Assembly: GCA_030668875.1 (NCBI GenBank)
Contig: DAOVER010000005.1
Location: 26,597-90,596, forward strand
DNA length: 64,000 bases
DNA from: Candidatus Heimdallarchaeota archaeon
GTDB taxonomy: Archaea > Asgardarchaeota > Heimdallarchaeia > Heimdallarchaeales > Heimdallarchaeaceae
Reading direction: 5' to 3'
This document shows, piece by piece, positions 20,130 through 34,360 of the stretch. Position numbers and translations under genes: made by a program. Numbering within the stretch: the stretch's first letter is position 1; every line of letters begins with the position of its first letter. The notes under the pieces are model-generated. The model had not been told where the DNA came from and did no database searches. It saw nothing but the letters and a program-made list of their open reading frames with translations.

Positions 20130-20783
20130 GTGAAATGTATGGGTCTACGTATCTTTTCAGTTAATAAAGATGGTAGTTTTTTCGAGGTTCCATCAGAGAA
20201 AGAGAGTTTTCTTCGCGGTGATGGAGCTTATTTGATTGTAGATAGAAAAGAAAAGAAGATATTCATCTATCGAAAAATGGGCATATCAAGTGCTTTAGCA
20301 TATTCAGCCGCTAGAGCAGCAACCAACCTTAATACACATAAGGGTTCTAGATACAAAATCATTAACATAGAGGAGGAAGAGAAGGATCGTATACTTCCAT
20401 CACTTTATCAGAGGCTAGATGTTTCGATTCCAAGTGAGATTAAAGAAAGTAAAGAAACTGCGATTGCCTCGAGAAATATTGTTTATGGTGAAACAACCAT
20501 TCCAGTTTTTGAAACAAAAAACTATTCTTCAAGCGTCCAAACTAAGAAAGAAGAGAGAGAAATACAACCTGTAAGAAAAATTCTTCAAATAGAGAAAGAG
20601 AAGGAGAGTTACAAAACTCAAAATATTGATGAGTTAGTTAAAACTTTGGCAAATCAGATTCTTTTTGAAACTAAATTAGACAAAGCCAAAAAAATGAATA
20701 AGCCAGCAAGACATATTCTGAAAGCTGAAATGGTTAAAAAGATAGATTCGTTATTAGATAATATCTATGAAGAGGACAACTAA
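20130..20783 (+). CDS. gelsolin/cofilin-like domain protein with a K/E-rich tail
   Basis: LRIFSVNKDGSFFEVPSEKESFLRGDGAYLIVDRKEKKIFIYRKMGISSALAYSAARAATNL...IEEEEK aligns by eye with the gelsolin repeat pattern (L.IWRV...VP...F..GD.Y.I......Y.W.G..S......A...A..L....E). Confidence 0.45.
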   Translation: MKCMGLRIFSVNKDGSFFEVPSEKESFLRGDGAYLIVDRKEKKIFIYRKMGISSALAYSAARAATNLNTHKGSRYKIINIEEEEKDRILPSLYQRLDVSIPSEIKESKETAIASRNIVYGETTIPVFETKNYSSSVQTKKEEREIQPVRKILQIEKEKESYKTQNIDELVKTLANQILFETKLDKAKKMNKPARHILKAEMVKKIDSLLDNIYEEDN

Positions 20784-22150
20784 TTACCCTCTTTCTGTAT
20801 TTTCGCAATGAAAAAACCTTCAGTTTCATGAAGGTGAGGATATAATTCTTGAGCTTTATTTTCCAATAGATTAGATTCTATGCCAATCATTGGTGAGGCT
20901 AGCATTAATGAAAAGTTTGAGTTGTTCTTGAGAAACTGTGAAATAATCTCATGATTTTCGTCTTCAAAGAGTGAACAAGTTGAATAAACAATACACCCAC
21001 CCACTTCAAGAAGCTTGGAGGCTTCATCAAGCAAAGCATTCTGTAGTTTAATATACCAATTAAGATCTCTCTGTTTCATTCTCCATTTAATATCAGGTCT
21101 TGAAGAATAAGTTCCTGATCCAGAGCATGGGGGATCAAGTAGAATTTTGTCAAAAGTTGATTTAACAGTTTTTTTTAGAGTTCTCGCGTCTGCTGATAAA
21201 ATTTTAACTTCTTCAGCACCTAACAATTTTAATCGATCAGTTAATATTTTCACTCTTTCCTTGTTTAAATCAACAGCCAAGATATTTTTTGCTGTACCAG
21301 CTTGAGCTACAATATGTGAAGTTTTTCCCCCTGGTGATGCGCACATATCGAGTATTTCCTCGCCTAGTTGTGGATTCAGAACTAGTGAAACCAAGGCAGA
21401 AGCTTTTTGCTGTATAACAAGCTTGCCTTCCTTAAATTCATCTAAACGTGGAATTGGTACAGGTGTTTCATCAATGCGTATAAGATTTGGTATAATTTCA
21501 ACAGGGGTGTACTTTATCTCATAGGTTGCAAGATTGTCAACAATCTCATCAAAAGATGCTTTTAGGGTATTAATTCTTACATACATCGGGATACTTTCAA
21601 GTAAGGATTGCAAAACTTTCTCTGTGAAATCTACTCCCCATTGTTTGATGAATTTCCTAATTATCCAAGTATAAGTAAAATACTTCAGAGAATATTTTGA
21701 GGGTAAATCTTCGCGATTCTCAAAGAGATTTTCTTCAGTTACTGATTGGATTAATTCTAACAAAGTGTCAAAAGACATTTGAGCAACGGAGCGATAGTAG
21801 GGTTCAAGCATAGTAACTACTTCGTCAACTGGTTTATTATTTACTTTCAACATGTGTGTAGCTATGCGTAATAGTGCTCTCATATCACTCTTTATTTTTT
21901 TCAGAGAGAAATTTGATGAGCTTGTTTTTATAAAAAGATCAATCCAGTTAAGTTTTCTATAAATCTCATTAGTATAATAATATAGAGTAGATTCTTCTTC
22001 TCTATCTAAATTATATTGATTAACGTGAAAACGTAAAACATTACGTAAAGATTTCCCATTATCTATATCTTCTAATGCAGACATAACTATAGGAATAATA
22101 GAATCCATCACATCCCAACTCTCTCTTCTGGAGTCATTGTCTCTTTTCAC
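20780..22150 (-). CDS. NOL1/NOP2/Sun (RsmB-like) RNA cytosine-C5 methyltransferase
   Basis: DMCASPGGKT, LLDPPCSGSGT and YSTCS motifs. Confidence 0.9.
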   Translation of the reverse strand: MKRDNDSRRESWDVMDSIIPIVMSALEDIDNGKSLRNVLRFHVNQYNLDREEESTLYYYTNEIYRKLNWIDLFIKTSSSNFSLKKIKSDMRALLRIATHMLKVNNKPVDEVVTMLEPYYRSVAQMSFDTLLELIQSVTEENLFENREDLPSKYSLKYFTYTWIIRKFIKQWGVDFTEKVLQSLLESIPMYVRINTLKASFDEIVDNLATYEIKYTPVEIIPNLIRIDETPVPIPRLDEFKEGKLVIQQKASALVSLVLNPQLGEEILDMCASPGGKTSHIVAQAGTAKNILAVDLNKERVKILTDRLKLLGAEEVKILSADARTLKKTVKSTFDKILLDPPCSGSGTYSSRPDIKWRMKQRDLNWYIKLQNALLDEASKLLEVGGCIVYSTCSLFEDENHEIISQFLKNNSNFSLMLASPMIGIESNLLENKAQELYPHLHETEGFFIAKIQKEGN

Positions 22151-22161
22151 TATATATTGGT

Positions 22162-22968
22162 TTAGTTGGTTAAATCATTAACAGAAATCCAGTTTACTAT
22201 CTCTTGCGGATAGAAAATTACTTTCTGCTCTACTTTCATTTGTAATAACTGTGAAAACTTTCTAAGAGCGACATTACAGAAATCTTGAATAGGGATAAAT
22301 AGGAAATTCATTTTGTTTTGTTTGTATTCCTTTAATCGTTTTGAATCTAAATTGAAACTAACCACTGTAGTTACTCCTTCCTTCTTGAGTTTCTTTAGTT
22401 CTTCTGACGATAATTCTTGCTTTTCCAGTACAAAACATTCAGGTTTATCATCGGATGTGTTGTTAAAAGCTATCCATTTCTTTGTGAGATGTGAAAGATT
22501 TGCTAGGAAATCTTTGAAAGAAATTTCGCTAGCATTCCAGCGAGAAATGTTGTTACCTGGAGATACGGAAACTTTGTCTTGTTTAAATCGATTGACACCA
22601 AGTGTTTGTAGAAAGTATGCAAAAGCACCATTTTTTGAGTATAACCAGTTATTTGATAGGCTCATTGTTTTGATATTATTGGTAGTTAAAGAGCGTAATA
22701 ATTCAAAATCTCGCTCAGATAATGGAAAACCATTTTCGATAATAGATAATGGCAGAATAGTGATAACCAGATTAGATTTGTTATCATTCATCGAGTGTGT
22801 AAGTCTAAGATTAGCAAATGTGGAAACGAAGATCGTTTTTACTATAGTAGATTTTGTAACCTTTTCTGCATAAGTTCCAAATTCAAGCCCAAAATCCTTA
22901 TTTCGTATGACATCTTTATCACACATTGAGCTAAGTAATTTCAATATCTCGTCTAAAGTTTTTGTCAT
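22162..22968 (-). CDS. hypothetical protein (268 aa)
   Basis: Intact ORF 11 nt downstream of the NSUN gene on the same strand. No motif recognised. Confidence 0.5.
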   Translation of the reverse strand: MTKTLDEILKLLSSMCDKDVIRNKDFGLEFGTYAEKVTKSTIVKTIFVSTFANLRLTHSMNDNKSNLVITILPLSIIENGFPLSERDFELLRSLTTNNIKTMSLSNNWLYSKNGAFAYFLQTLGVNRFKQDKVSVSPGNNISRWNASEISFKDFLANLSHLTKKWIAFNNTSDDKPECFVLEKQELSSEELKKLKKEGVTTVVSFNLDSKRLKEYKQNKMNFLFIPIQDFCNVALRKFSQLLQMKVEQKVIFYPQEIVNWISVNDLTN

Positions 22969-23183
22969 TCTAACGACGTTTGTGATTACAACTTAAAAAA
23001 GGATTTGGGGGCTTTGCTGAAAGTAAAATACCTCAAAAATGAAGAAAAGAAAAAATAGTTCTTACTTCTTTAGGAACAATGGTATTAGTGTATATCATCG
23101 GTTGGAATAAAGCTAAAAGAAAAGTTTAAAACAAAAGTAAGGAAGGAAAGACGTAAGCTTGATTTGTAAGATTTACAGAGAAT

Positions 23184-23268
23184 GCCAGGATATCCAAGCG
23201 GCTACGGAGATGCATTGGAAATGCATTGCCCTTGTGGCGCCGGGGTTCGAATCCCCGTCCTGGCTCCA
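23184..23268 (+). tRNA. tRNA-Ser(GGA), class II with a long variable arm and encoded CCA
   Basis: Acceptor GCCAGGA/TCCTGGC. Anticodon stem ATGCA/TGCAT with loop TTGGAAA. T arm CGGGG-TTCGAAT-CCCCG. Variable arm TGCCCTTGTGGCGC. Confidence 0.9.
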
Positions 23269-23389
23269 TATTTTCTTAAACATGTTTATTTGACTAATGA
23301 ATATGTTTTTCTCTATTAAGCAAATACTTAAAAAAATCTTATCTGCATCCTTCTTGAAGTCATTGGTATCTTCTACATATAGATGCTAG

Positions 23390-23465
23390 GCGAAGCTCGC
23401 TGGAGATAGATGTCTCCCTTTCTACAAACTTGTAGAACGATGAGCTCCACAACTCCGGGTTGTGG
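23390..23465 (+). promoter_or_regulatory. candidate structured 5' leader of the uS13-uS4-uS11 operon (four consecutive hairpins)
   Basis: The hairpins are GCGA-agc-TCGC, GGAGA-tagatg-TCTCC, CTACAA-ac-TTGTAG and CCACAAC-tccgg-GTTGTGG. They are locally GC-richer than the flanks and end 27 nt before the uS13 ATG. Confidence 0.35.
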
Positions 23466-23491
23466 AAGAAAAAACGAACAAAAGTGATAAT

Positions 23492-23938
23492 ATGTCATTT
23501 CGCCATTTAGTTAGGATAAAGTCTACCGATTTAGAGGGTCATTTACCTGTTTCTTTAGGACTTTCTAAAATCGGAGGTGTTAACAGAAGGTTAGCACAGA
23601 CAATTGTAAAAACATTGAATATTCCTTATACTGAACGTATCGGTACTCTTACCGATGTTAAAGTTAAGGAAATAGAAAGCGTTATTTCTGATCCCGTTGC
23701 TGCAGGTATCCCTGTGTGGATGATTAATCGAAGAAAAGATCGTCAAACTGGTGATAATTTACACATAACAGAGGCCAAACTCATTCTTCAGACAAAACAA
23801 GATATTGAAAGATATATCAAGATTCGATGCCGTCGAGGAATTCGCCATCAGTTCAAATTAAAAGTCAGAGGTCAAAAGACCCGAACTCATGGTGGTACTG
23901 GTACGACTGTAGGCGTATCTAAGAGAAGACAAAGGTAA
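23492..23938 (+). CDS. rps13: 30S ribosomal protein uS13
   Basis: FRHLVRIKSTDLEGHLPV..L..IGGV and a basic C-terminus. The start is set to the ATG at 23492, which gives 148 aa. Confidence 0.9.
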   Translation: MSFRHLVRIKSTDLEGHLPVSLGLSKIGGVNRRLAQTIVKTLNIPYTERIGTLTDVKVKEIESVISDPVAAGIPVWMINRRKDRQTGDNLHITEAKLILQTKQDIERYIKIRCRRGIRHQFKLKVRGQKTRTHGGTGTTVGVSKRRQR

Positions 23939-23943
23939 TTATT

Positions 23944-25221
23944 ATGGGTGGAATTAAGAGAAAAAGAAAGAAAATCGAAACGCCAGGTCATCCTTATGAT
24001 AAAGCTCGCTTAGAGAGAGAACTCCCTCTTGTTGGTGCTTATGGTTTAAGAAACAAGCGCGAATTATGGAAAGCAAGAACTATTCTTTCTACAGCTAGAC
24101 AACAAGCTAGAGGCTTACTAGCTCTTGACCCTGAAATTAGAAAAGTTAGAGAACAAGAACTTCTTTCAAGACTCTCTCGTTTTGGTATGTTATCTCAGAA
24201 TAGCAATCTTGACTCTGTTTTAGCACTTGAAATTAAAGTCATTCTTGAAAGAAGACTTCAAACAATTGTATTCAGAAAAGGTTTAGCATCCTCTCCGTAC
24301 CAAGCTCGTCAATTTATTGCTCACAGACACATAGCTATTGGAACTGGTGTTGCAACATCTCCTAGCAGATTAATCACAATAGCTGAAGAGGAGATAGTCA
24401 ACTACGCTCCCCGTTCTCCACTGAATGATCAAACTCATCCTTCGCGACCTCAAGCACCTCCTGCTTTTGATGCGGGGCAACCTGAGAAAAGGGAAGAACA
24501 TAAGCGTGAAAGAACTGGAAGAGATGGCAAACCTAGAAGGAAAGAAGCTCCAAAGAAGGAAACTAAACCAGGAGTTAAACCAAAACCAGAGGTAAAGAAG
24601 GAAACTCCAAAGAAAGAAGCTCCAAAGAAGGAAACTAAACCAGGAGTTAAACCAAAACCAGAGGTAAAGAAGGAAACTCCAAAGAAAGAAGTTCCAAAGA
24701 AGGAAACTCCAAAACCAGAGGTAAAGAAGGAAACTCCAAAGAAAGAAGTTCCAAAGAAGGAAACTCCAAAACCAGAGGTAAAGAAGGAAACTCCAAAACC
24801 AGAGGTAAAAAAGGAAACTCCAAAACCAGAGGTTAAAACAAAGCCAGAAGTGAAGAAAGAGGTTCCAAAGAAGGAAACTAAACCAGAAGTTAAAACAAAG
24901 CCAGAGGTAAAGAAGGAAACTCCAAAACCAGAGGTAAAGAAGGAAACTCCAAAACCAGAGGTTAAAACAAAGCCAGAAGTAAAGAAAGAAGCTCCAAAGA
25001 AGGAAACTAAAATCTCTGACCTTGACATCTCTTTGATAAAAGGTATTGGTGCAAAAACTGCCATGCTTCTCAAAGAAAATGGCTTTGATACTGTTGGTAA
25101 GATTGCTAAGGCAACTACTGAAGAACTTTCCAAAGTTCCAGGTGTTGGTCCCGCTACTGCATCAGCTATGAATAGTGAAGCTAAAGTTTTGCTTTCAAAG
25201 AAAGCTGAGGATAAGAAGTAG
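23944..25221 (+). CDS. rps4: 30S ribosomal protein uS4 with a C-terminal extension of about 260 aa (K/P/E tandem repeats plus an HhH module)
   Basis: The N-terminal ~165 aa is a normal archaeal S4 (PGHPYDKARLERE...S4 RNA-binding domain). Then come KPEVKKETPKKE repeats and ISDLDISLIKGIGAKTAMLLKENGFDTVGKIAKATTEELSKVPGVGPATA. Confidence 0.9.
   Translation: MGGIKRKRKKIETPGHPYDKARLERELPLVGAYGLRNKRELWKARTILSTARQQARGLLALDPEIRKVREQELLSRLSRFGMLSQNSNLDSVLALEIKVILERRLQTIVFRKGLASSPYQARQFIAHRHIAIGTGVATSPSRLITIAEEEIVNYAPRSPLNDQTHPSRPQAPPAFDAGQPEKREEHKRERTGRDGKPRRKEAPKKETKPGVKPKPEVKKETPKKEAPKKETKPGVKPKPEVKKETPKKEVPKKETPKPEVKKETPKKEVPKKETPKPEVKKETPKPEVKKETPKPEVKTKPEVKKEVPKKETKPEVKTKPEVKKETPKPEVKKETPKPEVKTKPEVKKEAPKKETKISDLDISLIKGIGAKTAMLLKENGFDTVGKIAKATTEELSKVPGVGPATASAMNSEAKVLLSKKAEDKK
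24544..25008 (+). repeat. in-frame coding tandem repeats inside uS4 (72-nt unit x2, 57-nt unit x2, then shorter KPEVKKETP variants)
   Basis: gaagctccaaagaaggaaactaaaccaggagttaaaccaaaaccagaggtaaagaaggaaactccaaagaaa recurs with a 72-nt period at 24544 and 24616. Related units continue to about 25008. Confidence 0.9.
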
Positions 25222-25228
25222 GTGAAGT

Positions 25229-25714
25229 ATGATGAGTAAAAAAGAAGAAACTAAAGTTAAATCTGAAGAAAAGTCTGAAGAAAAAACTGAAACAACAGAA
25301 TCTTCGCGACCTGAGCGACCAAGAAGAAGAGAATCTAAACACGGGATAGCACATATCTTTTCAAGCTATAATGACACAATCATCCACATAACAGACATCT
25401 CTGGAGCTGAAACATTCAGCCGTAAAAGTGGAGGAATGTTTGTGAAAGCAGACAGAAATGAATCAAGTCCTTATGCAGCAATGAAAGCAGCAAACGCAGC
25501 AGCACAAGAATCGCAAGCAAAAGGAATATATCAACTGTATGTAAGATATAGGGCACCAGGAGGACATAAAAATAGAACTCCAGGACCAGGAACACAAGCA
25601 GCATTACGTGCACTGAAAAGATCAGGAATGAGAATAATAAGACTAGAAGATGTAACTCCATTGCCACACAATGGTTGTAGGAGAAAGGGTGGCCGTAGAG
25701 GCCGTAGAATGTAG
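25229..25714 (+). CDS. rps11: 30S ribosomal protein uS11 with a K/E-rich N-terminal extension
   Basis: [18 protein letters not shown] ... [23 protein letters not shown]. Confidence 0.9.
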
Positions 25715-25765
25715 TTTTCATCTTTTTCCATTTCCTTATTTTTACTTTCATTTTTGTAATGTTTG
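25715..25765 (+). terminator. possible oligo-T archaeal terminator after uS11
   Basis: Several T tracts (ctttttcc, tatttttac, catttttg) immediately follow the stop codon. Confidence 0.3.
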
Positions 25766-25805
25766 GGTTTATATCCCATTTTCTTTATTATAATTTGAAG
25801 AGTTT

Positions 25806-26252
25806 ATGACAATTACTAAAGCTAAAATATTTGCATGTGAAATCTGTGGGAAAGAGTTTGGAAGAAAGGACAATCTAGGAAGGCACAAAATAACAGTTCA
25901 TTCCAAATCACAGAAGCATAAATGTCCAAAGTGCAATTTTTCTTCAACAAGAAAAGATAGTCTTGATAAACATATCAAAGAAGTTCACAGTGAAGTAAAG
26001 CAATATTCTTGTAAAATGTGTGGAGAAAGGTTCACACAAAAAGGGAGTATGGAAAGGCATATAGATTCCTCTCATAAAGACGTTTTTTCTTTTGCATGTC
26101 CCAAATGCAATTCAATTTTCTCAAGAAAAGATAGCTTGTTACGACATATCAGAAGTGTGCACGAAGGTATAAGACCTCACAAATGTTCAGAATGTGGTAA
26201 AAGCTTTCAACATAAACATCATCTGAAGGATCACCTAATTTTAGGTCATTGA
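25806..26252 (+). CDS. C2H2 zinc-finger protein, 5 tandem fingers
   Basis: There are five C-x2-C-x12-H-x4-H units, for example CEICGKEFGRKDNLGRHKITVH and CSECGKSFQHKHHLKDHLILGH. The period is about 28-29 aa with linkers such as EGIRPHKC. Confidence 0.9.
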   Translation: MTITKAKIFACEICGKEFGRKDNLGRHKITVHSKSQKHKCPKCNFSSTRKDSLDKHIKEVHSEVKQYSCKMCGERFTQKGSMERHIDSSHKDVFSFACPKCNSIFSRKDSLLRHIRSVHEGIRPHKCSECGKSFQHKHHLKDHLILGH

Positions 26253-26261
26253 GGGAAGGAA

Positions 26262-27425
26262 ATGAGTAACTCGGAAAAAATAATAATGCGACCAACTTGT
26301 GAAATCTGCGGTCTTAGTTTTTCAAGAAAAGACAGTTTGTATAGACACAAACGATCAGTTCATTCAGAGTCAAAGAAATATAGCTGTACAGAATGCAATC
26401 TCACATTTTCTCGTAAAGATACACTGGATCGTCACATCAATGATGTCCACAAACAAATAAGGAAATATATTTGTACCATATGTGACGAGAAGTTCAAACA
26501 AGCGGGTGCTCTAAAAAGACATATCCAAACAATGCATGAGAAGAATATTAGTTATGAATGTCCAAACTGTGATGCAGCATTCCCGCGTAAAGACAACCTA
26601 GACAGACACATAAATGCCGTTCATTTAAACCTCCGACCCCACATTTGCCAGGAATGTGGTGCAGCTTTCAAACTACCTGATCACCTTAAGCAGCACATTA
26701 TTTCCATACATACTGACCGGCGTCAATATGTTTGTGATGAATGTGGTTTTGCTTTCAAACTTCGTCAACATCTAAATGATCATGTCAAAGTTGTTCACCT
26801 AGGTCTTCGTTCTTATGCTTGTGAGGAATGTGATTCTTCTTTTGCTCATGCTCGTGCTCTTAAGCAACACATTATTTCTGTTCATACCGATGAACTTCCT
26901 TATGTTTGCGAGAAATGTAAGAGAGGATTTGCAGATCCTAGTCATCTATATAGGCATGAAAAAGCTGAAGCTTGTTGGTTTACAACTACTACTGCCTACA
27001 AATGGGAAGAGCTTTGTAAAGAGATAGCTGAGATTCTTTTAGAGGAAAAGAATTGGGAGTGGAAACCTACTATAGAAACACCTGAGTTGGTTGAACAGAC
27101 TAGAGTGCAGCCTGAGATTGTTATCTATAATGATGATGGTACGATGGATTTTATCGATGCTAAGAGGTCTACTTATGCTATTTTCAAGGAGAAGGATCTG
27201 GTAGTTTATCCTAAGGTGGCTAGGAGGGTGGAGTTCTGGTGCCTCTACGGTAAAACCAAGGGGATATTTGAAGAGGAGGAAGGGGTGGAAGCGAAATCAA
27301 GTGAAGAAATCATTGGCAAACTAGAAAAGGAAGATTCGCATGATGGACAGAGAGTAAGGAATCTAATAATGAAGATTAGTTTATTGAAAAAGGGAATAAG
27401 ATTTGAAGGACAACAGACACTGTAG
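26262..27425 (+). CDS. C2H2 zinc-finger protein with 8 tandem fingers and a C-terminal domain of about 150 aa carrying a PD-(D/E)XK-like motif
   Basis: Seven C-x2-C-x12-H-x4-H fingers plus a terminal C2HC-like finger (CEKCKRGFADPSHLYRHEKAEAC). The C-terminal region has KWEELCKEIAEILLEE ... VQPEIVIYNDDGTMDFIDAKRS. Confidence 0.85.
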   Translation: MSNSEKIIMRPTCEICGLSFSRKDSLYRHKRSVHSESKKYSCTECNLTFSRKDTLDRHINDVHKQIRKYICTICDEKFKQAGALKRHIQTMHEKNISYECPNCDAAFPRKDNLDRHINAVHLNLRPHICQECGAAFKLPDHLKQHIISIHTDRRQYVCDECGFAFKLRQHLNDHVKVVHLGLRSYACEECDSSFAHARALKQHIISVHTDELPYVCEKCKRGFADPSHLYRHEKAEACWFTTTTAYKWEELCKEIAEILLEEKNWEWKPTIETPELVEQTRVQPEIVIYNDDGTMDFIDAKRSTYAIFKEKDLVVYPKVARRVEFWCLYGKTKGIFEEEEGVEAKSSEEIIGKLEKEDSHDGQRVRNLIMKISLLKKGIRFEGQQTL

Positions 27426-27464
27426 TCATAGAAAAACAGATTGTACAATAAAGTCTTAAAGAAC

Positions 27465-28283
27465 TCAATACCCATACCTTGAGGGTAAGCTTGATCTGTA
27501 ATCATAACTTCTAAACAAGTTTTCAATTAACCGAGGGATAGATTCGCCCCTAAAATCTCTAACTGTGTCTATTATATCGTCATCTTTACCCTCTAACAGC
27601 TTCAACCAAAGCTGAGGTTTGTATCTTACAATGTTGGAAAGCATCCAAGAACCTACAAATGCATCAAATGGGTTATAACTTCCTATCACATCAACAAATG
27701 AAGGAACAGATCTCTTTTCCAAATAATCAGAAATATTTGGAAAGCCCTTGAGATTGTCTTCAGCTAAAAGAAGTAGTAAGCTGTAAAAAACACCTTTATC
27801 ATAGACTTTAGCATGCATATACGGTCTGTTTTCTACATATTTGCCTTTTTTCGAAAGACCATGATGAGTGAAGAAAAACACCTCGTCTTTCATTTCATAT
27901 TCAAGACAGAACACTCCTTTGACACATTGTAATAATGCATAGTATTCAACAAGTGGGCTAGAGTTTTCATCCATTTTTAAGGCAGTTTTAAACATCTCAT
28001 AGATCTGTTGAAAATAGATACTAGAATAAATAGCTATTTCAGTATAATCGATTTCAAAATCCCTAGTTTTCACTAGATTTGCTTTCTTATGGATATTTTC
28101 TAGAAGATTAATTTTTGCATCTTTACGCTCTCTTTCAGTCTTATGGATTCTTCTAGATTTCATTTGCTCTTCTTTTGAATCACAGGTTGGATTGAACCTG
28201 GTAATCAATTTTTTCTTAAGATAATATGGAATAGAGTATTTCTCAAGATTATAGAGAACGATTTGGTGATACTTGTCAATCAT
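27465..28283 (-). CDS. hypothetical protein, YaaC-like (weak), partner of the PLD nuclease gene
   Basis: Starts 3 nt after the upstream PLD gene stop. The C-terminal SWMLSNIVRYKPQLWLKLLEG resembles the YaaC-family ...RY.P..W... region. Confidence 0.35.
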   Translation of the reverse strand: MIDKYHQIVLYNLEKYSIPYYLKKKLITRFNPTCDSKEEQMKSRRIHKTERERKDAKINLLENIHKKANLVKTRDFEIDYTEIAIYSSIYFQQIYEMFKTALKMDENSSPLVEYYALLQCVKGVFCLEYEMKDEVFFFTHHGLSKKGKYVENRPYMHAKVYDKGVFYSLLLLLAEDNLKGFPNISDYLEKRSVPSFVDVIGSYNPFDAFVGSWMLSNIVRYKPQLWLKLLEGKDDDIIDTVRDFRGESIPRLIENLFRSYDYRSSLPSRYGY

Positions 28284-28285
28284 TA

Positions 28286-29068
28286 TTAAACCTCAGTTTT
28301 ATTAATTTTCAATCGGATTGGTTTCAGTTGTCTATAGCAAGAACGGCAGGCAGGTTTATTTGTTGAAATACTTACCTCAGCTCCACATATGTGACAATAA
28401 TTTCCCTTAACAAAACCTCTTCTCTTATCTTTCCAACAATCCTTACACCTTATAACGTGGGTCTCTATTGCATCAAGAGCTATTTTTTTCTTGCAAACTA
28501 TGCAAAAACCCAGTTCTTCTTGATTTTCAGCATAAACAGTAAAGTGTTCTCCTTCTTGTTTGAATTGTAGCTCAATCGCCTGTTTACCATTATCAATAGC
28601 TCTAATTTCTTCTCCATTTCTAACAAGAACTGAGATATATTTATCAATCAATTCTAAGTTAGGCAAATCGTCTTCACCTTCGAAATCGACTCCAATCTCA
28701 AAGTTATCCTTTAGTGAATGGTAATAAAGATTCATTGAAGTAGTTAATGCTCTATCTCCATTATAATAACACTTTGCATGAAGATTAGGTACAAGCCAAA
28801 TTTCATCAGAATAATCGTATAGCTTATCTCTTATAGCTTGTGTTTTCGTCAACCTTTTCTCAGCTGATTTATCATCTGGTTTTCTTGTAATAAAGACAAT
28901 TTGCAGATCTTTGTTTTGTTCTATTAAACTATCCATTAACCTAGACCACTGACCATCTTTTTTTTCAAGTTGAATATAGGGGCTAACTATATGTATGTGT
29001 TTAGTAGCCCTTTCAACTATTTCCTCTATAGCCCCAAATATAGAGCCAGTGCTTGTTAGAATTTTCAC
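28286..29068 (-). CDS. PLD-superfamily (single HKD, Nuc-like) nuclease with a C-terminal four-CxxC zinc ribbon
   Basis: NLHAKCYYNGDRALTTSMNL is an HxK...D...SxN motif. The C-terminus has CIVC...CKDC...CHIC...CRSC. Confidence 0.6.
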   Translation of the reverse strand: MKILTSTGSIFGAIEEIVERATKHIHIVSPYIQLEKKDGQWSRLMDSLIEQNKDLQIVFITRKPDDKSAEKRLTKTQAIRDKLYDYSDEIWLVPNLHAKCYYNGDRALTTSMNLYYHSLKDNFEIGVDFEGEDDLPNLELIDKYISVLVRNGEEIRAIDNGKQAIELQFKQEGEHFTVYAENQEELGFCIVCKKKIALDAIETHVIRCKDCWKDKRRGFVKGNYCHICGAEVSISTNKPACRSCYRQLKPIRLKINKTEV

Positions 29069-29122
29069 TTCTTTTCACTTCCCATCCAAGCAAATAATTA
29101 AATAAACTATAAAAGTTTTTAG

Positions 29123-29139
29123 GGGATTTATTGTTTGAT
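29123..29139. repeat. left copy of the 17-bp direct repeat flanking the IS (gggatttattgtttgat)
   Basis: An identical 17-mer occurs at 30142..30158. Confidence 0.9.
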
Positions 29140-30141
29140 GTTAACTCAACTAAGATCGGTTACACTTTTGGGCAGGATATCTTTGGGAGGTTGGTTCATA
29201 AATCTTTCACCTGGAGTTTGGAGGTTGATTCCTTGATGAGGGCGGAAGAAGTTGTAATAGTCCCTATAGCGCCGGAGGTCAGCGTTACAATAAGCTAATC
29301 CCAGCCGCTTCAGCTCTCTGACGGTTGTACCATGCTGGCGCTCTACTTTCCCACAAGTCTCAGGGTGGAAGAAACGGCTGCGGATATGCTTTATTCCTTC
29401 CTGAGCGAGCACGCGGGTGAAGGTACTTGTCCCTCCTCGCATAGAGTGGAACTGTGCTCCATTGTCTGTTAGTACTTGCTGGGGACGCCTATAAAGCTGG
29501 AAGCAGTGGTGTAACCTTGTCAAGATCTCTTGCTGGCTAATAGGATGGGTGTAGAGTCTACTCTCCAGGAGGAAGCGGGAGTGGTCATCAATGATGGTTA
29601 AAAGATAAAGGTGTTGTCCTTGCTCTTCCACCCAGAAGGGACCTTTGATATCCAGTTGCCAGAGGTCATTGGGTTTGGGTCGTTCGAATCTCTTTCTCGC
29701 CTTCTTCTTGTACGGTTTCTTTCTCCAAGGAGGTTCTCCTTCTCGTTGGAGAGTCTTCCAGATGGTGGTGTGGGAGAGCACCAAGCCTTTCCTCTTGAAC
29801 CATTGCTCAGTCTGCATGATGTTCAAGCCATAGGCTCGTCTCAAGGTGAGGATCTTCTTCTTTATCTGTGGTGTTACCTTTCTCCTTATGCATCTTGGTC
29901 GTCGAGAGCGTTCTTCCCACCATTTTCCCTTGGGGTTCTCACGATAACGTCTTAACCAGGTGTAGACGAATTTTCTTGAGACCATGTACTGTCGAGCAAG
30001 GTGGGTGATAGGTGTTCTTTTCAAAGCCTTTTTAACTACGCGTTTCCTTATAAGTGTCGGGTTACTGTTCGGGTTCATTTAACTCATTTACCCACGGTAA
30101 CCCCTCTTATTTAACTGTCACCAATGTGGGTGGAGTTAACA
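29140..30141 (-). mobile_element. IS481-like insertion sequence (about 1.0 kb, single transposase ORF)
   Basis: Imperfect terminal inverted repeats: (T)GTTAACTCAACTAAGATCGG versus the reverse complement TGTTAACTCCACCCACATTGG. It is flanked by a 16-17 bp direct repeat. GC content is clearly higher (about 50% in lines I counted) than the flanks (about 30-35%). Confidence 0.85.
29146..30078 (-). CDS. DDE transposase (HTH plus integrase-core rve domain), IS481-family-like
   Basis: LWQLDIKGPF (first D), IIDDHSRF, LTDNGAQF (second D), HPETCGKVERQH (E) and YNFFRPHQGI. Confidence 0.9.
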   Translation of the reverse strand: MNPNSNPTLIRKRVVKKALKRTPITHLARQYMVSRKFVYTWLRRYRENPKGKWWEERSRRPRCIRRKVTPQIKKKILTLRRAYGLNIMQTEQWFKRKGLVLSHTTIWKTLQREGEPPWRKKPYKKKARKRFERPKPNDLWQLDIKGPFWVEEQGQHLYLLTIIDDHSRFLLESRLYTHPISQQEILTRLHHCFQLYRRPQQVLTDNGAQFHSMRGGTSTFTRVLAQEGIKHIRSRFFHPETCGKVERQHGTTVRELKRLGLAYCNADLRRYRDYYNFFRPHQGINLQTPGERFMNQPPKDILPKSVTDLS

Positions 30142-30158
30142 GGGATTTATTGTTTGAT
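30142..30158. repeat. right copy of the 17-bp direct repeat flanking the IS
   Basis: Identical to 29123..29139. Confidence 0.9.
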
Positions 30159-30175
30159 TAATGAAAAGTTCTGTA

Positions 30176-31246
30176 TCATCGTTGTCTTATAACATAATTT
30201 ACAATTGTTTCAACCTCTTTTGAAGAAAATGTTTCTTCGAAATAAGAGATATAATTCACTATTTCTTTAAGTGAAAGAACTTTCACAAACTGAAATTGCT
30301 CTTTAGGTTTAGCATTAGTCATTAGAAGCACACTACGAATAGCGATTTTCTTTTTTCCCCAATGATGAGAACTAAGACGAAGAGAACCACTAGAAACAGA
30401 GCTATTTAGAAGAGTGAAAAGAGCAAAATTTGCACGTCTAATTTGTTTAACTGGTGAAAACAGGTTCAGATTTTGTAGAGATTTCTCGCTCCAGTTTTTA
30501 GTTTCAAGTAAAAACACTCCTGAAGGACCAACAACAAGATGGTCAACTTGTATAGATAATATTTTATCATTTTCTTTTCTATTGCAAATTGGACGATTAA
30601 AAGACATCTGAAGATCATTGATAACAGTGAATGTATCTGGAAGTTTCTTTAGTTCTTCAGTAACTTGTTGTTCTCCTATGGTTCCAGAAATTAGGGTGTA
30701 GTTATCATCTAAAATTCTATTTATGAGATTGATTCGGTTAGTATAATTTTGAGATCGTTTTGATATTAAGGTTTCAAAGTTGGTTTCACGATAGGTTACA
30801 TCGCGTTCTAGATTCTTAATTTTCTTGGAAAGATGACGAAAGGGTTTTTCAACTTCATCTATAAAATAGTGTGTCAACTTGTCAAGTCTTTTAGAAAGTT
30901 GATTGAGTTTAATTTTGTAAAATAGGAGCTTGAAAGGATTCTTAGTCGATGAGGAATATTGAATGATCTTAGAAGGGATTAGTTCTTTTTCTTCATTAAG
31001 TAATTTTGTTTGATTAGATATCATCTCTTGATATTGATTTGTGAGTAGAGTATAATCGGATTTAAGTTGACTAATTTCAGCAAGAAGTTTCTCTTTTTGC
31101 TGTTCTTGATGCTGTGAAATAGAATTTTTCCAAGTTTTCTTAAAAGTCTGTATTGATTCAAGAGTTGAAAACTCTCTGATGTTATTTTGTTTTAAGACAT
31201 ATAGAAGATGATTAAGAGAACTAGAATTACCATATATGCGAGCCAA
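30176..31246 (-). CDS. NERD (nuclease-related domain) protein with a long N-terminal coiled coil
   Basis: GTIGEQQVTEELKKLPDTFTVINDL...ILSIQVDHLVVGPSGVFLLETKNW is the NERD signature. The N-terminal ~190 aa is heptad-rich. Confidence 0.8.
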   Translation of the reverse strand: MARIYGNSSSLNHLLYVLKQNNIREFSTLESIQTFKKTWKNSISQHQEQQKEKLLAEISQLKSDYTLLTNQYQEMISNQTKLLNEEKELIPSKIIQYSSSTKNPFKLLFYKIKLNQLSKRLDKLTHYFIDEVEKPFRHLSKKIKNLERDVTYRETNFETLISKRSQNYTNRINLINRILDDNYTLISGTIGEQQVTEELKKLPDTFTVINDLQMSFNRPICNRKENDKILSIQVDHLVVGPSGVFLLETKNWSEKSLQNLNLFSPVKQIRRANFALFTLLNSSVSSGSLRLSSHHWGKKKIAIRSVLLMTNAKPKEQFQFVKVLSLKEIVNYISYFEETFSSKEVETIVNYVIRQR

Positions 31247-31400
31247 AGAAATACCTCCATTCCAACGGAATATTCAATCAAACAATCTTAATAAAACTTG
31301 TTATGAACAGGTATTCGTCCATTTTATAATTTAGACCGTAGAATGTAGTTTTACTCATTCACATTTTTCTTTTATTTTTGTAATATTCTTATATACTGAA

Positions 31401-31859
31401 ATGTTAGACTGTTTCTCAATGGGTCTCAACATCGATTTATCCAAACTTGATTACGCCTTTCATCGTAAACCTTTGCTTATAGGTGGGAAAGTTATGGAAT
31501 ATTATAATCTACGTAAAGCAGGTGATGATGTAGACTTTGTTGTAGCTTTAGAAGACTATGAAGGCTTAAAAGAAGCCTATCCAGAACCAGAATACCAGAG
31601 GGGCTTATTTGGTGATCTTGGAGTAACAGTTGATGAATCAGAGGTTTGGAAATGTATATGTCTTTTCGAATATAAATTCTTATCAGAAAAAGCATTAGAA
31701 ATGGAAGAATATCTAATCATATCATTAGAGAAATTGCTCTTTTTGAAAGTTTTAGCAATGCACAAAAGAAAATATCGAAAAGATGTAAAACTGATAAGGC
31801 AAAAGATTCTGGACAATAAATATGATGACGAAGAGTGGAAGGAGAAATATATGAAATAA
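31401..31859 (+). CDS. hypothetical protein, possible minimal nucleotidyltransferase fold
   Basis: LLIGGKVMEYYNLRKAGDDVDFVV resembles the GG...R...D.D motif of small nucleotidyltransferases (weak). Confidence 0.3.
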   Translation: MLDCFSMGLNIDLSKLDYAFHRKPLLIGGKVMEYYNLRKAGDDVDFVVALEDYEGLKEAYPEPEYQRGLFGDLGVTVDESEVWKCICLFEYKFLSEKALEMEEYLIISLEKLLFLKVLAMHKRKYRKDVKLIRQKILDNKYDDEEWKEKYMK

Positions 31860-31885
31860 CATTGTAGAAAGGAGCTTACTTCTTC

Positions 31886-32335
31886 TCAATTCTCCTTTAT
31901 CGTACCGGTCAATTCGAGTAATTGTTCATATTGCCAAACGCGTTCCTTAGTATCAACTTTAGCAGCATAATTTGCTGCATGAACAGCGTGCCCTGCAACA
32001 TGGACAGTAGCAGTTGCATGACCAGCTGCACGTGCAACTGTACAAGCTACAGCGTTATCAACTTCTCTAGCCGCGGCATGAGCAGCAAATGCTGCAGAGC
32101 GTACCTTACCTACAGAGATCTCCCCATATGTCCATGAATGTGCTGCTTCTATCGCTTTCCTCGGTCGGTCATCATTGGGAAATTTATCTTCAAAATAGGA
32201 TAACACATGTTCCACACAATAAATCGCCCAGATCACCAATGATCTTTTTTCCATTTTGCTTGTAATCTCTGCAATCTTCTTCTTAAGGTCGCTCTCGGAA
32301 TTAAGGGCAGAACTATCCTCACTCATACTTACCAT
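31886..32335 (-). CDS. Ala/His-rich helical protein of the family usually annotated as putative immunity protein (Imm-5-like)
   Basis: WAIYCVEHVLSYFE...DDRPRKAIEAAHSWTYGEISVGKVRSAAFAAHAAAREV...ARAAGHATATVHVAGHAVHAANYAAKV matches the W..CAEHVL/D.RPR.AIEAA/AAHAAAR/AAGHA pattern I recall for that family. Confidence 0.45.
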   Translation of the reverse strand: MVSMSEDSSALNSESDLKKKIAEITSKMEKRSLVIWAIYCVEHVLSYFEDKFPNDDRPRKAIEAAHSWTYGEISVGKVRSAAFAAHAAAREVDNAVACTVARAAGHATATVHVAGHAVHAANYAAKVDTKERVWQYEQLLELTGTIKEN

Positions 32336-32502
32336 CTGAATGGTTGTTTAAAGCAGATAAATAAACGATGTATTTAGTTCATTTAAATCTAAGCAAAATG
32401 CAAGAAAATGATAAGCTTGTCTGATAAAGATAAATCCATCTTACCAAATTTAGCCATAAGTTTTTTCTAATAGCAACATTTTTGTCAACTTAGGTACAAT
32501 CG

Positions 32503-33333
32503 ATGTCTATTGAGAAAGTTAAGGATAATGTTTATGCAATTACTGATGGTAGCACACGCGGGAATGTAGCTGCTTATGTTTTACCTACACAGATTGTCTT
32601 TGTTGATTCAGGTATGCACATTCCTTTAATAAAGAAATTTAGGGAGTATATTGAAAAAGAAACTGGAAAAAAGGCTTCTACTCTTTTTATAACACATGAG
32701 CATGGAGATCATGTTTTCGGCAATCAAATTTTTGAAGACTGTGAGATAATTACATCAGAATTAGCAAATGAAGCCATGATAAAATCAAAACAAAATGATT
32801 GGACACCAATAAATATAGAAGAATGGAAGAAAAATGCAGAAGATCCAACTGCATTAGAAGGGTTACAAATTGTTTTCCCCAATAAAACCTTTGCAGATGA
32901 GTATGAGATGGTAGATGGGGATGTAAAAATCATAGTTAAAAGAACAGGCGGTCATACTGAAGGTTCAAGTTATGTTTATTGTCCAAACTACAAAGTAATG
33001 TTCGGTGGTGACAATTTATTCAACCACAGTTTTCCTTGGGGTGGAACACCTACTGCCGACCCTTTAAAATGGATTAAAGCCTTAGAAGAATACCTCTCAC
33101 TTGACGTGGAGCATTATATTCCCGGACATGGTTCAACATCTGACAAGAAACCTTTAGAGGAATTTCGTGCATATCTGAACAAGGTTGTTACTCTTATGCA
33201 AGATATGTTTGTTGAAGGAAAGAGTGAAGAAGAAATTCTTGAAGCAGCAGATAAAATAGGATATTACCCACCTAGAAGGGAGCAATGGAAGGCTCTAACG
33301 TTAAAGAGATGGTATGATGTTGTGTTAAATTAA
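32503..33333 (+). CDS. metallo-beta-lactamase fold hydrolase
   Basis: THEHGDHVFG (HxHxDH), plus a later GGHTEGS and PGHG. Confidence 0.85.
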   Translation: MSIEKVKDNVYAITDGSTRGNVAAYVLPTQIVFVDSGMHIPLIKKFREYIEKETGKKASTLFITHEHGDHVFGNQIFEDCEIITSELANEAMIKSKQNDWTPINIEEWKKNAEDPTALEGLQIVFPNKTFADEYEMVDGDVKIIVKRTGGHTEGSSYVYCPNYKVMFGGDNLFNHSFPWGGTPTADPLKWIKALEEYLSLDVEHYIPGHGSTSDKKPLEEFRAYLNKVVTLMQDMFVEGKSEEEILEAADKIGYYPPRREQWKALTLKRWYDVVLN

Positions 33334-33610
33334 TCTGATTTGTCTCCTTTTATTCTTTATAATTATTTTTTCGCGGAGATAATTCTTAGAAAAAAACTCT
33401 TTTTGTCAGAATATTCTTTGTTGTCTTTTAGTATTAGTTTTCATAGAAACTATGCTTAGTTAAAAGTGATGCAAAAGAATGACCCTAAAGAAGAGGACCA
33501 ATGAAGCATCCTTTCCCTTCAGCAACCCATAATGGGGGTCCTCTTCCTTCTTCCACTTTAACAAAATCTTAAATAATTGTAAGATAGGTCGATTTTATTC
33601 GTGGTAATCT

Positions 33611-34360
33611 ATGTATAATATAACATTTGTACCTAAAATTAACGAAATCGGTCTCGATGAGAAAATCAAATTCTCTTCGCTTATTGATTATATGCAACAT
33701 GCAGCATATATGCATGCAGATCAATTGGGGGTGGGGCACCATCAGATTTTTCATAAAAATTTAACTTGGTTGCTTCTAAGATATGCAGTAGAAGTTCTTC
33801 GTCATCCCACATTAGATGAAAAACTTAGGGTAGTCACATGGGTAGCTGAATCTGAAAGCCCGAAATTCACCTTAAGAGATTTTGAAATCTATGATGAGAG
33901 GGATAATATCATTTGCAAAGCAACAACAAGCTGGTTGCTATATAATTACAGAAAAAGACAAATTGTGAATTTCGTAGATTATTGGTCAAATTACGATGCA
34001 AGAGAAAAAAGAGCTTTAGATTATGATTTTCCAAAACTAGGATTACCTGAAAAAGTTTCTACAAAGAGAACCATAAAGGTCAGACTACATGATTTAGATA
34101 TTAATCAGCATGTAAATCATCGAATGTATATAGAGTGGATAATAGAGGGATTACCACAGAAAATATTCAAAAAATATGAATTGGAAAAACTGGAAATTAG
34201 TTTTAAGGATCAAGCGCTCTATGAAGATGAAGTTCTGGTGGAAACCGAAGCAGAAAAAATAAAGGGCACAGGACAAATTAAAGCGATTCATCAAATCACA
34301 AAAGGAAAGAAAAAGAGCCTTGTTTCCAAAGCTGTTACCTATTGGGGAGCGCAGAAATGA
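33611..34360 (+). CDS. acyl-ACP thioesterase family (double hotdog) protein
   Basis: IDYMQHAAYMHADQLGVG, NLTWLLLRYAVEV, VVTWV..., RDFEIYDE and DLDINQHVNHRMYIEWI match the FatA/FatB-type thioesterase layout. Confidence 0.7.
   Translation: MYNITFVPKINEIGLDEKIKFSSLIDYMQHAAYMHADQLGVGHHQIFHKNLTWLLLRYAVEVLRHPTLDEKLRVVTWVAESESPKFTLRDFEIYDERDNIICKATTSWLLYNYRKRQIVNFVDYWSNYDAREKRALDYDFPKLGLPEKVSTKRTIKVRLHDLDINQHVNHRMYIEWIIEGLPQKIFKKYELEKLEISFKDQALYEDEVLVETEAEKIKGTGQIKAIHQITKGKKKSLVSKAVTYWGAQK

Follow-up and report, generated by a model that had tools for sequence, protein, structure and literature searches.

The 64-kb stretch of Heimdallarchaeota DNA analysed here (the window) carries, directly behind the gene for ribosomal protein uS11, a 5.6-kb block of genes (~25715-31349) that is very likely a discrete island, inserted at the uS11 3' end and bounded by direct repeats. 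The block is led by ZnF2, a protein in which eight zinc fingers precede a C-terminal domain of ~150 amino acids (aa). Our observations suggest that the locus is a previously undescribed site-specific mobile island led by this protein. As an overall explanation we propose, with slightly less than even confidence, three layers: a ZnF island with exchangeable cargo, an IS481-family insertion sequence (IS) that arrived later, and genes of the flank. A sequence-only reading had taken positions 25806-32335, with eight open reading frames (ORFs), for a single accessory island of the defence or conflict type. All eight ORFs were found at the coordinates given there, downstream of tRNA-Ser, uS13, an unusually long uS4 and uS11, and the accessory character of the region stood; its limits did not, since the repeats exclude the last two genes, which encode a nucleotidyltransferase (NTase) and an Imm5-like protein. 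The two repeats are as follows.

25696..25774, + strand: left direct repeat (attL-like); last 19 nucleotides (nt) of uS11 including the stop codon, core CCGTAGAATGTAGTTTT, then a T-rich terminator/promoter stretch; from local alignment with 31332-31394
31332..31394, + strand: right direct repeat (attR-like); second copy of the uS11 3' end (GACCGTAGAATGTAGTTTT...) and a downstream promoter-like stretch

The first sign of the repeat came from nucleotide comparison with close relatives, in which ~55 nt just upstream of the NTase gene matched the end of uS11 in other genomes. Within the repeat, the last uS11 codons and stop codon (CCGTAGAATGTAG) are followed by TTTT and by a T-rich stretch with a TATA-like TTATAT at its end; the 28-bp uS11 3' end is GGTGGCCGTAGAGGCCGTAGAATGTAG, and the exact core common to the left and right repeats measures 17 nt. 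The native left-repeat sequence was found in all relatives. The right repeat, which stops 6 nt short of the NTase start codon, shares 96% identity over 52 nt with the native sequence downstream of uS11 in one of them (L030, from the comparison set described below). Because the direct repeats copy the uS11 end plus the following 45-60 nt, the insertion leaves uS11 whole and does not deprive the displaced gene downstream of its promoter region. Enclosed are the genes ZnF1, ZnF2, YaaC, PLD, the IS and NERD.

We compared the window with 30 Heimdall-group (Asgard) archaeal loci around uS11 (numbered with an L), which were searched with the window proteins and all of whose ORFs were clustered. A ZnF2 orthologue (59-77% identity) follows uS11 in ~20 genomes, preceded in 11 by a short ZnF1-like gene. 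A pattern search over all loci (~1.2 Mb) for same-strand second copies of the repeat inside the slot between uS11 and the thioesterase and MBL-fold hydrolase genes yielded strong copies, whose 15-nt core has no more than one mismatch, in L006, L008, L009, L010, L015 (two extra), L020 and L049, for which we estimate a chance expectation of ~0.05 matches. Weaker copies, backed by flanking similarity, were found in L002, L003, L005, L011 (two), L012 and L018. Thus at least 8 relatives from the Heimdall group, and probably 14, have the duplication around the ZnF2-led block, always in the same orientation, and the copies enclose ZnF2 in every case. In L009, L010, L011 and L020 the second copy starts sharply ~26-27 nt before the stop codon and is therefore unlike the remnant of a decaying pseudogene. 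The right copy abuts the ZnF2 stop codon in L006 and L015, so the smallest unit consists of the ZnF genes alone (1.66 kb in L006). Three copies of the uS11 3'-end repeat are present in L011 (at 14791 and 17861) and L015 (extra copies at 2626 and 3457), where they divide the slot into cassettes, e.g. [ZnF1 ZnF2] repeat [unknown 248-aa gene] repeat in L015, an arrangement that looks like tandem accretion or cassette capture. Genomes devoid of ZnF2 gave no convincing second copy, the sole extra match being one with three mismatches located 7 kb from uS11 in L027, which we take as chance, and no convincing flanking repeats were seen around distant genes of the ZnF2 C-terminal domain family (L038, L040, L042).

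The content of the slot differs widely. From ZnF2 to the thioesterase and MBL-fold hydrolase genes, 19 related Heimdall loci hold between nothing and ~7 kb of differing genes: nothing in L007, PLD in L002, L005 and L008, NERD in L002 only, YaaC of two types, NTase (10 loci) and Imm5-like genes (7 of ~20 loci), the latter two independent of each other. Inside the repeats, the cargo sets are none, YaaC', c38, HIT, PLD, PLD+c40, PLD+c38+NERD+c40 and, in the window, YaaC+PLD+NERD. Two empty sites complete the picture, and the expectation of the sequence-only reading that the block would be variably present between uS11 and the MBL gene agrees with all these loci. The first, L004, shares 93-96% nucleotide identity with L009, L010 and L012 on both sides, yet is without the 2.27-kb segment of ZnF2 and cargo, and a single stretch of 60-66 nt in L004 aligns to both repeat copies of these three loci. 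In the second, L017, ZnF genes are missing, whereas L016 has one right after uS11, the two loci being 90% identical as far as ~88 nt beyond the uS11 stop; L017 has the order uS11, APH, NTase, the same as that which follows the second repeat on its right in L006. Misassembly is an improbable source of these empty sites, because the exact shared core would be too short for k-mer assemblers to collapse. Cargo can also change within one setting: L010 and L012, whose surroundings are otherwise 93% identical, carry YaaC' and an unknown 300-aa protein, respectively.

The two genes at the head of the island, which the sequence-only reading had counted among its ordinary cargo, are the following.

25806..26252, + strand: ZnF1, 148 aa, five tandem C2H2 fingers (Pfam zf-C2H2, 3.4e-27)
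26262..27425, + strand: ZnF2, 387 aa, seven C2H2 fingers and one C2HC finger at aa 13-238 (Pfam zf-C2H2, 2e-43)
26964-27422, + strand: ZnF2 C-terminal domain (aa 235-387), ~150 aa, with conserved E249/E250, P284-E285 and D299-A-K301

ZnF2 turned out to be the constant gene of a repeat-bounded unit in more than 20 genomes and not cargo, because it always lies inside the repeats and leads the block while the cargo varies, and because the shortest blocks consist of ZnF genes alone. Its evolution is strongly constrained, with C-terminal domains 70-96% identical. ZnF1 is a paralogue of ZnF2 fingers 1-5. In ZnF2 itself, the C2HC finger is finger 8, which continues into the C-terminal domain, and the parts of the protein differ in conservation: in the orthologue alignment, mean identity to the window is 55% for fingers 1-4, 74% for fingers 5-8 and 79% for the C-terminal domain, the last two parts being close to invariant. 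Fingers 1-4 are mosaic, those of the window being closest to the distant L009 and L010 (75%) and not to the close L002, L005, L006 and L008 (44-53%). An arms race as the cause of their variability was rejected, as DNA-contact positions are less variable than scaffold positions. The idea that these fingers track the sequence past the uS11 stop was also rejected, by eye, since L030 and L005/L006 share that sequence and differ in finger type; applying the zinc-finger recognition code by hand to the uS11 end was abandoned as unreliable. The L003 orthologue (1267-2430) consists of two separate ORFs of 236 and 139 aa, the result of either pseudogenisation or a sequencing frameshift.

The C-terminal domain (ZnF2-C) defines a rare family. 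A full HMMER scan retrieved 62 clusters among 1.84 billion representatives, where a word-based search had given six relatives, and the named members come from Heimdallarchaeota and Hodarchaeota only. The domain is usually C-terminal to arrays of varied type: C2H2 fingers, five DUF4379 treble clefs, multiple helix-turn-helix (HTH) domains, HNH_repeat (associated with homing endonucleases), DUF6011 or 67-aa repeats. The last are found in a distant member of 751 aa without Pfam domain (L040:6889-7737), which has five tandem 67-aa (201-nt) repeats before the C-terminal domain; these repeats may be a new repeat-type DNA-binding array.

We consider ZnF2-C to be probably a nuclease of the PD-(D/E)XK type, judging from its motif, predicted secondary-structure order and context. 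The residues E249/E250, P284-E285 and D299-A-K301, which conform to the PD-(D/E)XK catalytic signature, are invariant in 19 ZnF2 orthologues. Across 34 diverse family members the pattern P-[DE]-I...I-[DE]-x-K is kept, with D/E exchange at both acidic positions, and the lysine K301 is invariant in our alignment A4. The best Pfam matches, both below significance, were RmuC (E 0.017; 3 of 25 members), the only Pfam family matched by more than one member, and VRR_NUC (0.074), both of them PD-(D/E)XK families. An AlphaFold2 model from a seven-sequence alignment has the order a-b-b-b-a-b, with a predicted local distance difference test score (pLDDT) of only 49.5. phmmer and profile searches against the PDB (E up to 10) returned nothing relevant and hhalign against the Holliday junction resolvase Hjc (1HH1) gave a probability of 0.1; the PD-(D/E)XK domain that the sequence-only reading had called putative is plausible, though no profile or fold search confirmed it.

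It is possible, though we lean against it, that ZnF2 is the targeting or mobilising factor of the island. In that case ZnF2 would recognise either the repeat or the invariant 3' end of uS11. A conserved target would go well with the conservation of its fingers 5-8, and the ~24 bp that eight fingers would span come near the 27 nt of coding sequence in the repeat. A break at the uS11 end might then promote recombination with DNA carrying the same 60-80-bp copy. Such break-stimulated recombination is proposed because the block contains no integrase, and a Campbell-type insertion of this kind would duplicate the 60-80-bp segment integrase-free. The fuller version, in which ZnF2 and its relatives are natural modular nucleases (PD-(D/E)XK domains fused to C2H2, HTH or treble-clef arrays) that drive integrase-free insertion at uS11 and cassette capture, is a bolder conjecture that we regard as rather unlikely.

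Several known systems share part of this design. As in FokI-type enzymes, engineered zinc-finger nucleases and modular homing endonucleases, a tandem DNA-binding array is joined to a separate small domain, here one with a PD-(D/E)XK-like motif, and among the relatives of ZnF2 the array type is swapped (C2H2, HTH, treble clef, HNH_repeat) and the C-terminal domain kept. Homing, however, normally leaves no target duplication, and the 60-80-bp duplication found here sets the locus apart from free-standing homing endonuclease genes. The tRNA-type integrative islands also have direct repeats of the target 3' end that leave the gene intact, empty sites, variable cargo and tandem repeat copies; in contrast to them, the target is here the ribosomal protein gene uS11, the only constant gene encodes a zinc-finger/nuclease-like protein, and neither the block nor its vicinity has an integrase of the tyrosine or serine type; we found no recombinase of either type among the block genes or the slot genes of the relatives. 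Proteins of R2-type non-LTR retrotransposons combine an N-terminal zinc finger/Myb region, a reverse transcriptase (RT), a CCHC motif and a PD-(D/E)XK restriction-like endonuclease (RLE), and target 28S rRNA genes (PMC4838377). The resemblance to R2 is architectural only and consists of C2H2 fingers, a Cys/His knuckle before a PD-(D/E)XK-like domain and a target gene of the translation apparatus; unlike R2, neither ZnF2 nor its neighbours have an RT domain. We saw no sequence link to R2 proteins: seven chains matched a profile of alignment A4 in PDB sequences at an E-value of 10 or less, and an R2 protein is not named among them, the presence of R2 structures there being unverified. A parallel with Tn7 TnsD/TniQ, for which attTn7 lies downstream of glmS, would be the reading of the 3' end of an essential gene and a safe landing downstream of it, and archaeal (Asgard) Tn7-like elements are reported to have TniQ with C2H2 fingers (bioRxiv 10.1101/2025.07.27.667033), a precedent for tandem C2H2 arrays in mobile elements of Asgard archaea; the locus differs in having no TnsA, TnsB, TnsC or TniQ domains and a duplication of 60-80 bp instead of 5 bp. 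Aloposons, mobile elements of Heimdallarchaeum with giant genes and tRNA targets, were set aside as unrelated. We found no paper describing the ZnF2-C domain, the uS11 target site or the island.

Several results weigh against a mobile island driven by ZnF2 and loaded with defence cargo. By Pfam and NCBIfam, the repeat-bounded block encodes no recombinase, integrase or transposase other than that of IS481. In five ZnF2-bearing loci (L007, L014, L021, L023, L030) a second repeat was not detectable, and L004 and L017 could be secondary losses through recombination between repeats instead of naive sites. Identity of the ZnF2 C-terminal domain tracks genome relatedness (93-96% to the closest genomes, ~70-77% to distant ones), a pattern that fits long vertical inheritance as well as mobility, and the contact positions of the variable fingers show no excess of change over the scaffold. 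On the cargo side, PADLOC-DB 2.0 recognised no system among the eight window proteins, of which only PLD gave matches (DrmC, DpdK and MkoC) and the other seven none or noise, nor any among ten cargo proteins of relatives; this agrees with the sequence-only reading, which had seen no named defence system here. Relatives of YaaC, PLD and NERD were not found on viral contigs (IMG/VR).

The first alternative, an ordinary defence or conflict island, would be an unstructured set of independently acquired nuclease genes at a recombination-prone spot, with the ZnF genes as cargo and the repeats incidental. Much of the locus resembles defence islands: nuclease-type genes (PLD, NERD, possibly PD-(D/E)XK) are clustered in a region that proved variable among relatives, with a mobile element inside it; YaaC has defence-like neighbourhoods elsewhere; and the cargo evolves faster than its surroundings (PLD 50%, NERD 63% and Imm5 63% identity, vs 83-95% for flanking genes). 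We nevertheless consider this alternative unlikely, given repeats that recur in 8-14 genomes in one orientation and always around ZnF2, minimal units made only of ZnF genes (L006, L015), a ZnF2 far more constant than any cargo gene and the failure to detect a known system. The slot is highly variable and does not look purely like a defence hotspot: in relatives it also holds APH, HIT, an AAA fragment, M29 peptidase, TPR, RibD_C, class I LysRS and several unknowns, metabolic and housekeeping genes among them.

In the second alternative, ZnF2 serves the host as a regulator or repair factor that binds DNA and is specific to the lineage. A single ancient insertion would have fixed it beside the ribosomal operon in an ancestor of this Heimdall clade; the repeat would be a relic of that event, retained for the terminator and the next gene's promoter that it contains, and the later flux of genes would be ordinary. 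This would account for C-terminal domains that follow genome relatedness, strong purifying selection with intact ZnF2 ORFs in ~20 genomes, conserved finger contact residues, the lack of a recombinase in the block and a GC content (0.345 for the island without the IS) equal to that of the genome (0.349). It fits poorly with second copies that keep up to 27 nt of uS11 coding sequence, neither coding nor promoter there, with the several repeat copies that partition the slot in L011 and L015, with presence and absence in genomes 90-95% identical in their flanks, and with mosaic fingers 1-4 in a family also fused to homing-endonuclease-type repeats; we thus hold it, too, to be improbable. Were ZnF2 merely a regulator, the locus would still be a well-delimited accessory island with clear population variation. 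A third possibility, that the island owes its movement to a helper element or to an integrase from elsewhere in the genome, with ZnF2 as a passenger such as a sequence-specific defence nuclease or an addiction-type gene that holds the island in place, is very unlikely: att-like 60-80-bp repeats at conserved-gene 3' ends are typical of integrase-mediated integration (tRNA-targeting islands), tandem copies look like accretion (L011, L015) and the block holds no recombinase, but Pfam scans of slot genes and window genes revealed no integrase gene within 10 kb in ~20 loci, ZnF2 is the only gene always inside the repeats, minimal units included, and the ~24-bp recognition length expected of eight fingers would resemble the conserved repeat core.

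If the island is indeed led and targeted by ZnF2, the Asgard archaea, to which eukaryotes have their closest known kinship, would possess natural proteins with the build of engineered zinc-finger nucleases, linked to a site-specific island at the gene of a ribosomal protein. This would imply that islands can insert without a recombinase, and would add a small group of array-swappable nucleases with potential as tools. The layout of zinc finger, Cys-His knuckle and RLE, together with a target in the translation apparatus, would echo the R2-type elements of eukaryotes. The locus would also be a test case for the role of tandem C2H2 fingers in archaea, where these eukaryote-like arrays have been described as poorly characterised (bioRxiv 10.1101/2025.07.27.667033). 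Finally, YaaC, PLD/zinc-ribbon and NERD would become candidate archaeal conflict genes missed by current defence catalogues.

The domain calls of the sequence-only reading were recovered for seven of the eight genes (two C2H2 arrays, YaaC, PLD, IS481, NERD and Imm5-like), and that of the NTase by fold and motif only. The three cargo genes of the window are listed here.

27465..28283, - strand: YaaC-like, 272 aa (Pfam YaaC, 7.6e-11)
28286..29068, - strand: PLD, 260 aa, single-HKD PLD nuclease fused to a double zinc ribbon with four CxxC (Pfam PLDc_2, 9.6e-07, and DZR_2)
30176..31246, - strand: NERD, 356 aa, an N-terminal coiled-coil-like half, then the NERD domain (Pfam NERD, 1.1e-13)

Each of them is probably a conflict or defence gene acting on its own; a defence role of the cargo is, on domain type and neighbourhoods elsewhere, an evenly balanced proposition. 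The YaaC gene is convergent with ZnF2 and lies 2 nt downstream of the PLD gene on the same strand, so the two are probably co-transcribed. This PLD-YaaC pair was seen in this genome only, and a two-gene system was rejected, PLD being without YaaC in L002, L005 and L008 and YaaC without PLD at 13 other loci. Neither this pair nor NTase-Imm5, whose co-occurrence the sequence-only reading had wished to see tested, keeps together: the partners occur apart. YaaC adjoins a ZnF2-family gene in the window, L003, L009, L010, L030, L049 and the unrelated contig L038. On L038 (885-3485), and also in L009, L010, L030 and L049, it lies directly downstream of the ZnF2-C-family gene on the same strand, the L038 protein having five DUF4379 treble clefs as its array, not C2H2 fingers; in L011 a TPR gene stands between ZnF2 and YaaC'. 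The two families may be functionally linked. Elsewhere, the neighbours of YaaC include HEPN_AbiV, Schlafen/AlbA_2, NYN, a type IIG restriction-modification enzyme and HNH/DUF4145/AAA_15 genes, which suggests, by association, a conflict-related role. YaaC as a HEPN protein was rejected: Rx4-6H is missing from its invariant residues, hhalign against an AbiV-HEPN protein gave a probability of 0.1 and the PDB search no match. A metagenome scan for YaaC loci gave only three. Next to a truncated YaaC in L039 (2149-2505, - strand), a 118-aa ORF without Pfam match contains IPDIEATK...LYEIET and resembles, by eye, a small restriction-endonuclease-like protein.

The PLD protein scores 29.1 bits with PLDc_2 (cut-off 27) and has the intact motif H97-A-K99-x5-D105-x5-S111-M-N113 of PLD/HKD (Nuc-like) enzymes. 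Its PADLOC match to DrmC reached 4.9e-11, and NCBIfam DrmC gave it 27.6 bits vs a cut-off of 133. The locus is unlike DISARM, Dpd and Mokosh systems in that partner genes are absent and PLD is fused to a double zinc ribbon; for DISARM, no DrmA helicase, DrmB/DUF1998 or methyltransferase domain occurs in any ORF of 25806-34360. NERD scores 52.1 bits (cut-off 22.1) and retains D235...E248-T-K250, as expected for the family; the only orthologue found, in L002, is 63% identical.

Between the PLD and NERD genes lies the insertion sequence.

29139..30141, - strand: IS481-family insertion sequence, 1003 bp, with inverted repeats and target duplication (NCBIfam IS481, 7.7e-60)
29146..30078, - strand: IS481 transposase ORF (rve, 2.7e-15; HTH_28/32)
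29139-29167 and 30113-30141, no strand: IS inverted repeats TGTTAAC.../...GTTAACA, 29 nt, 76% complementary, TGT start and ACA end
29123..29138, no strand: left 16-bp target-site duplication, GGGATTTATTGTTTGA
30142..30157, no strand: right 16-bp target-site duplication, second copy of the left one

The element has the features of the IS481 family, with 202.8 bits for the IS481 equivalog, just below the cut-off of 224, and is a recent secondary insertion. Its GC content is 0.48 vs 0.35 for the window. Logan assemblies of SRR26080959-63 hold contigs identical to the window, and these short-read contigs break 29-30 nt inside both IS ends, the pattern that a multicopy repeat should give. Contrary to what had been supposed, the window holds another mobile element besides the IS: the gene for the Cbf5/TruB pseudouridine synthase (38855-41389, - strand; DKCLD, TruB_N, TruB_C_2, PUA) carries an intein with a LAGLIDADG domain.

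Two genes follow the right repeat and belong to a variable resident flank, not to the island.

31401..31859, + strand: NTase, 152 aa, outside the island; minimal pol-beta-type nucleotidyltransferase by motif and fold
31886..32335, - strand: Imm5-like, 149 aa, putative immunity protein of the kind known from polymorphic toxin systems, outside the island (Pfam Imm5_like, 2.9e-39; 134.3 bits vs a cut-off of 25)

The 152-aa ORF had no match in Pfam, NCBIfam or PADLOC. Its widespread family, for which there is no Pfam model, counts 336 homologues, including bacterial (Chloroflexi) proteins of 55-60% identity, with an invariant GG-x13-DxD...GDxG (G28-G29...D43-x-D45...D72 invariant in 33 sequences). 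An AlphaFold model (pLDDT 88) matched nucleotidyltransferases only in Foldseek (TM1012, MenT1, ANT(2'')-Ia and LnuA; probability 1.0, E ~2e-3, TM 0.5-0.58). Fold and motif alike thus point to a putative minimal nucleotidyltransferase of the pol-beta type. A MenT/AbiEii-type antitoxin partner was not apparent, since the NTase has varied neighbours across 10 loci (APH, HIT, Imm5, unknown, MBL). Likewise, no toxin-domain ORF was found near the Imm5-like gene, whose neighbours are the NTase and MBL genes, and an NTase/Imm5 pair was rejected, each occurring independently of the other. The APH-like phosphotransferase gene that adjoins the NTase gene shows 94% nucleotide identity between L017 (10608-11716) and L006 (2649-3757), two genomes whose uS11 and MBL genes are 84% and 72% identical; these values suggest recent exchange of the APH-like gene between diverged Heimdall lineages.

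Further to the right lie genes for an MBL-fold hydrolase, an acyl-ACP thioesterase, a 597-aa protein of unknown function, PfkB and a HAD hydrolase. uS11 and the neighbouring genes had matches in Heimdallarchaeota metagenome-assembled genomes only, and an Rfam scan of 23000-33500 detected tRNA-Ser only. Upstream, uS4 (23944-25221, + strand) is 425 aa long, with an S4 domain, then a long Lys/Pro/Glu-rich tandem repeat (24540-25011; periods of 27, 57, 72 and 129 nt), whose length differs among relatives, and a C-terminal helix-hairpin-helix (HHH_5). The region around the ribosomal operon has undergone rearrangement: an RsmB/NOL1-type methyltransferase gene and an adjoining 268-aa gene (20780-22968, - strand) lie upstream of uS13 in the window and L002, downstream of the slot on the opposite strand in most relatives (L003, L009, L010, L012 and L014 compared), and directly after uS11 in more distant Heimdall genomes.

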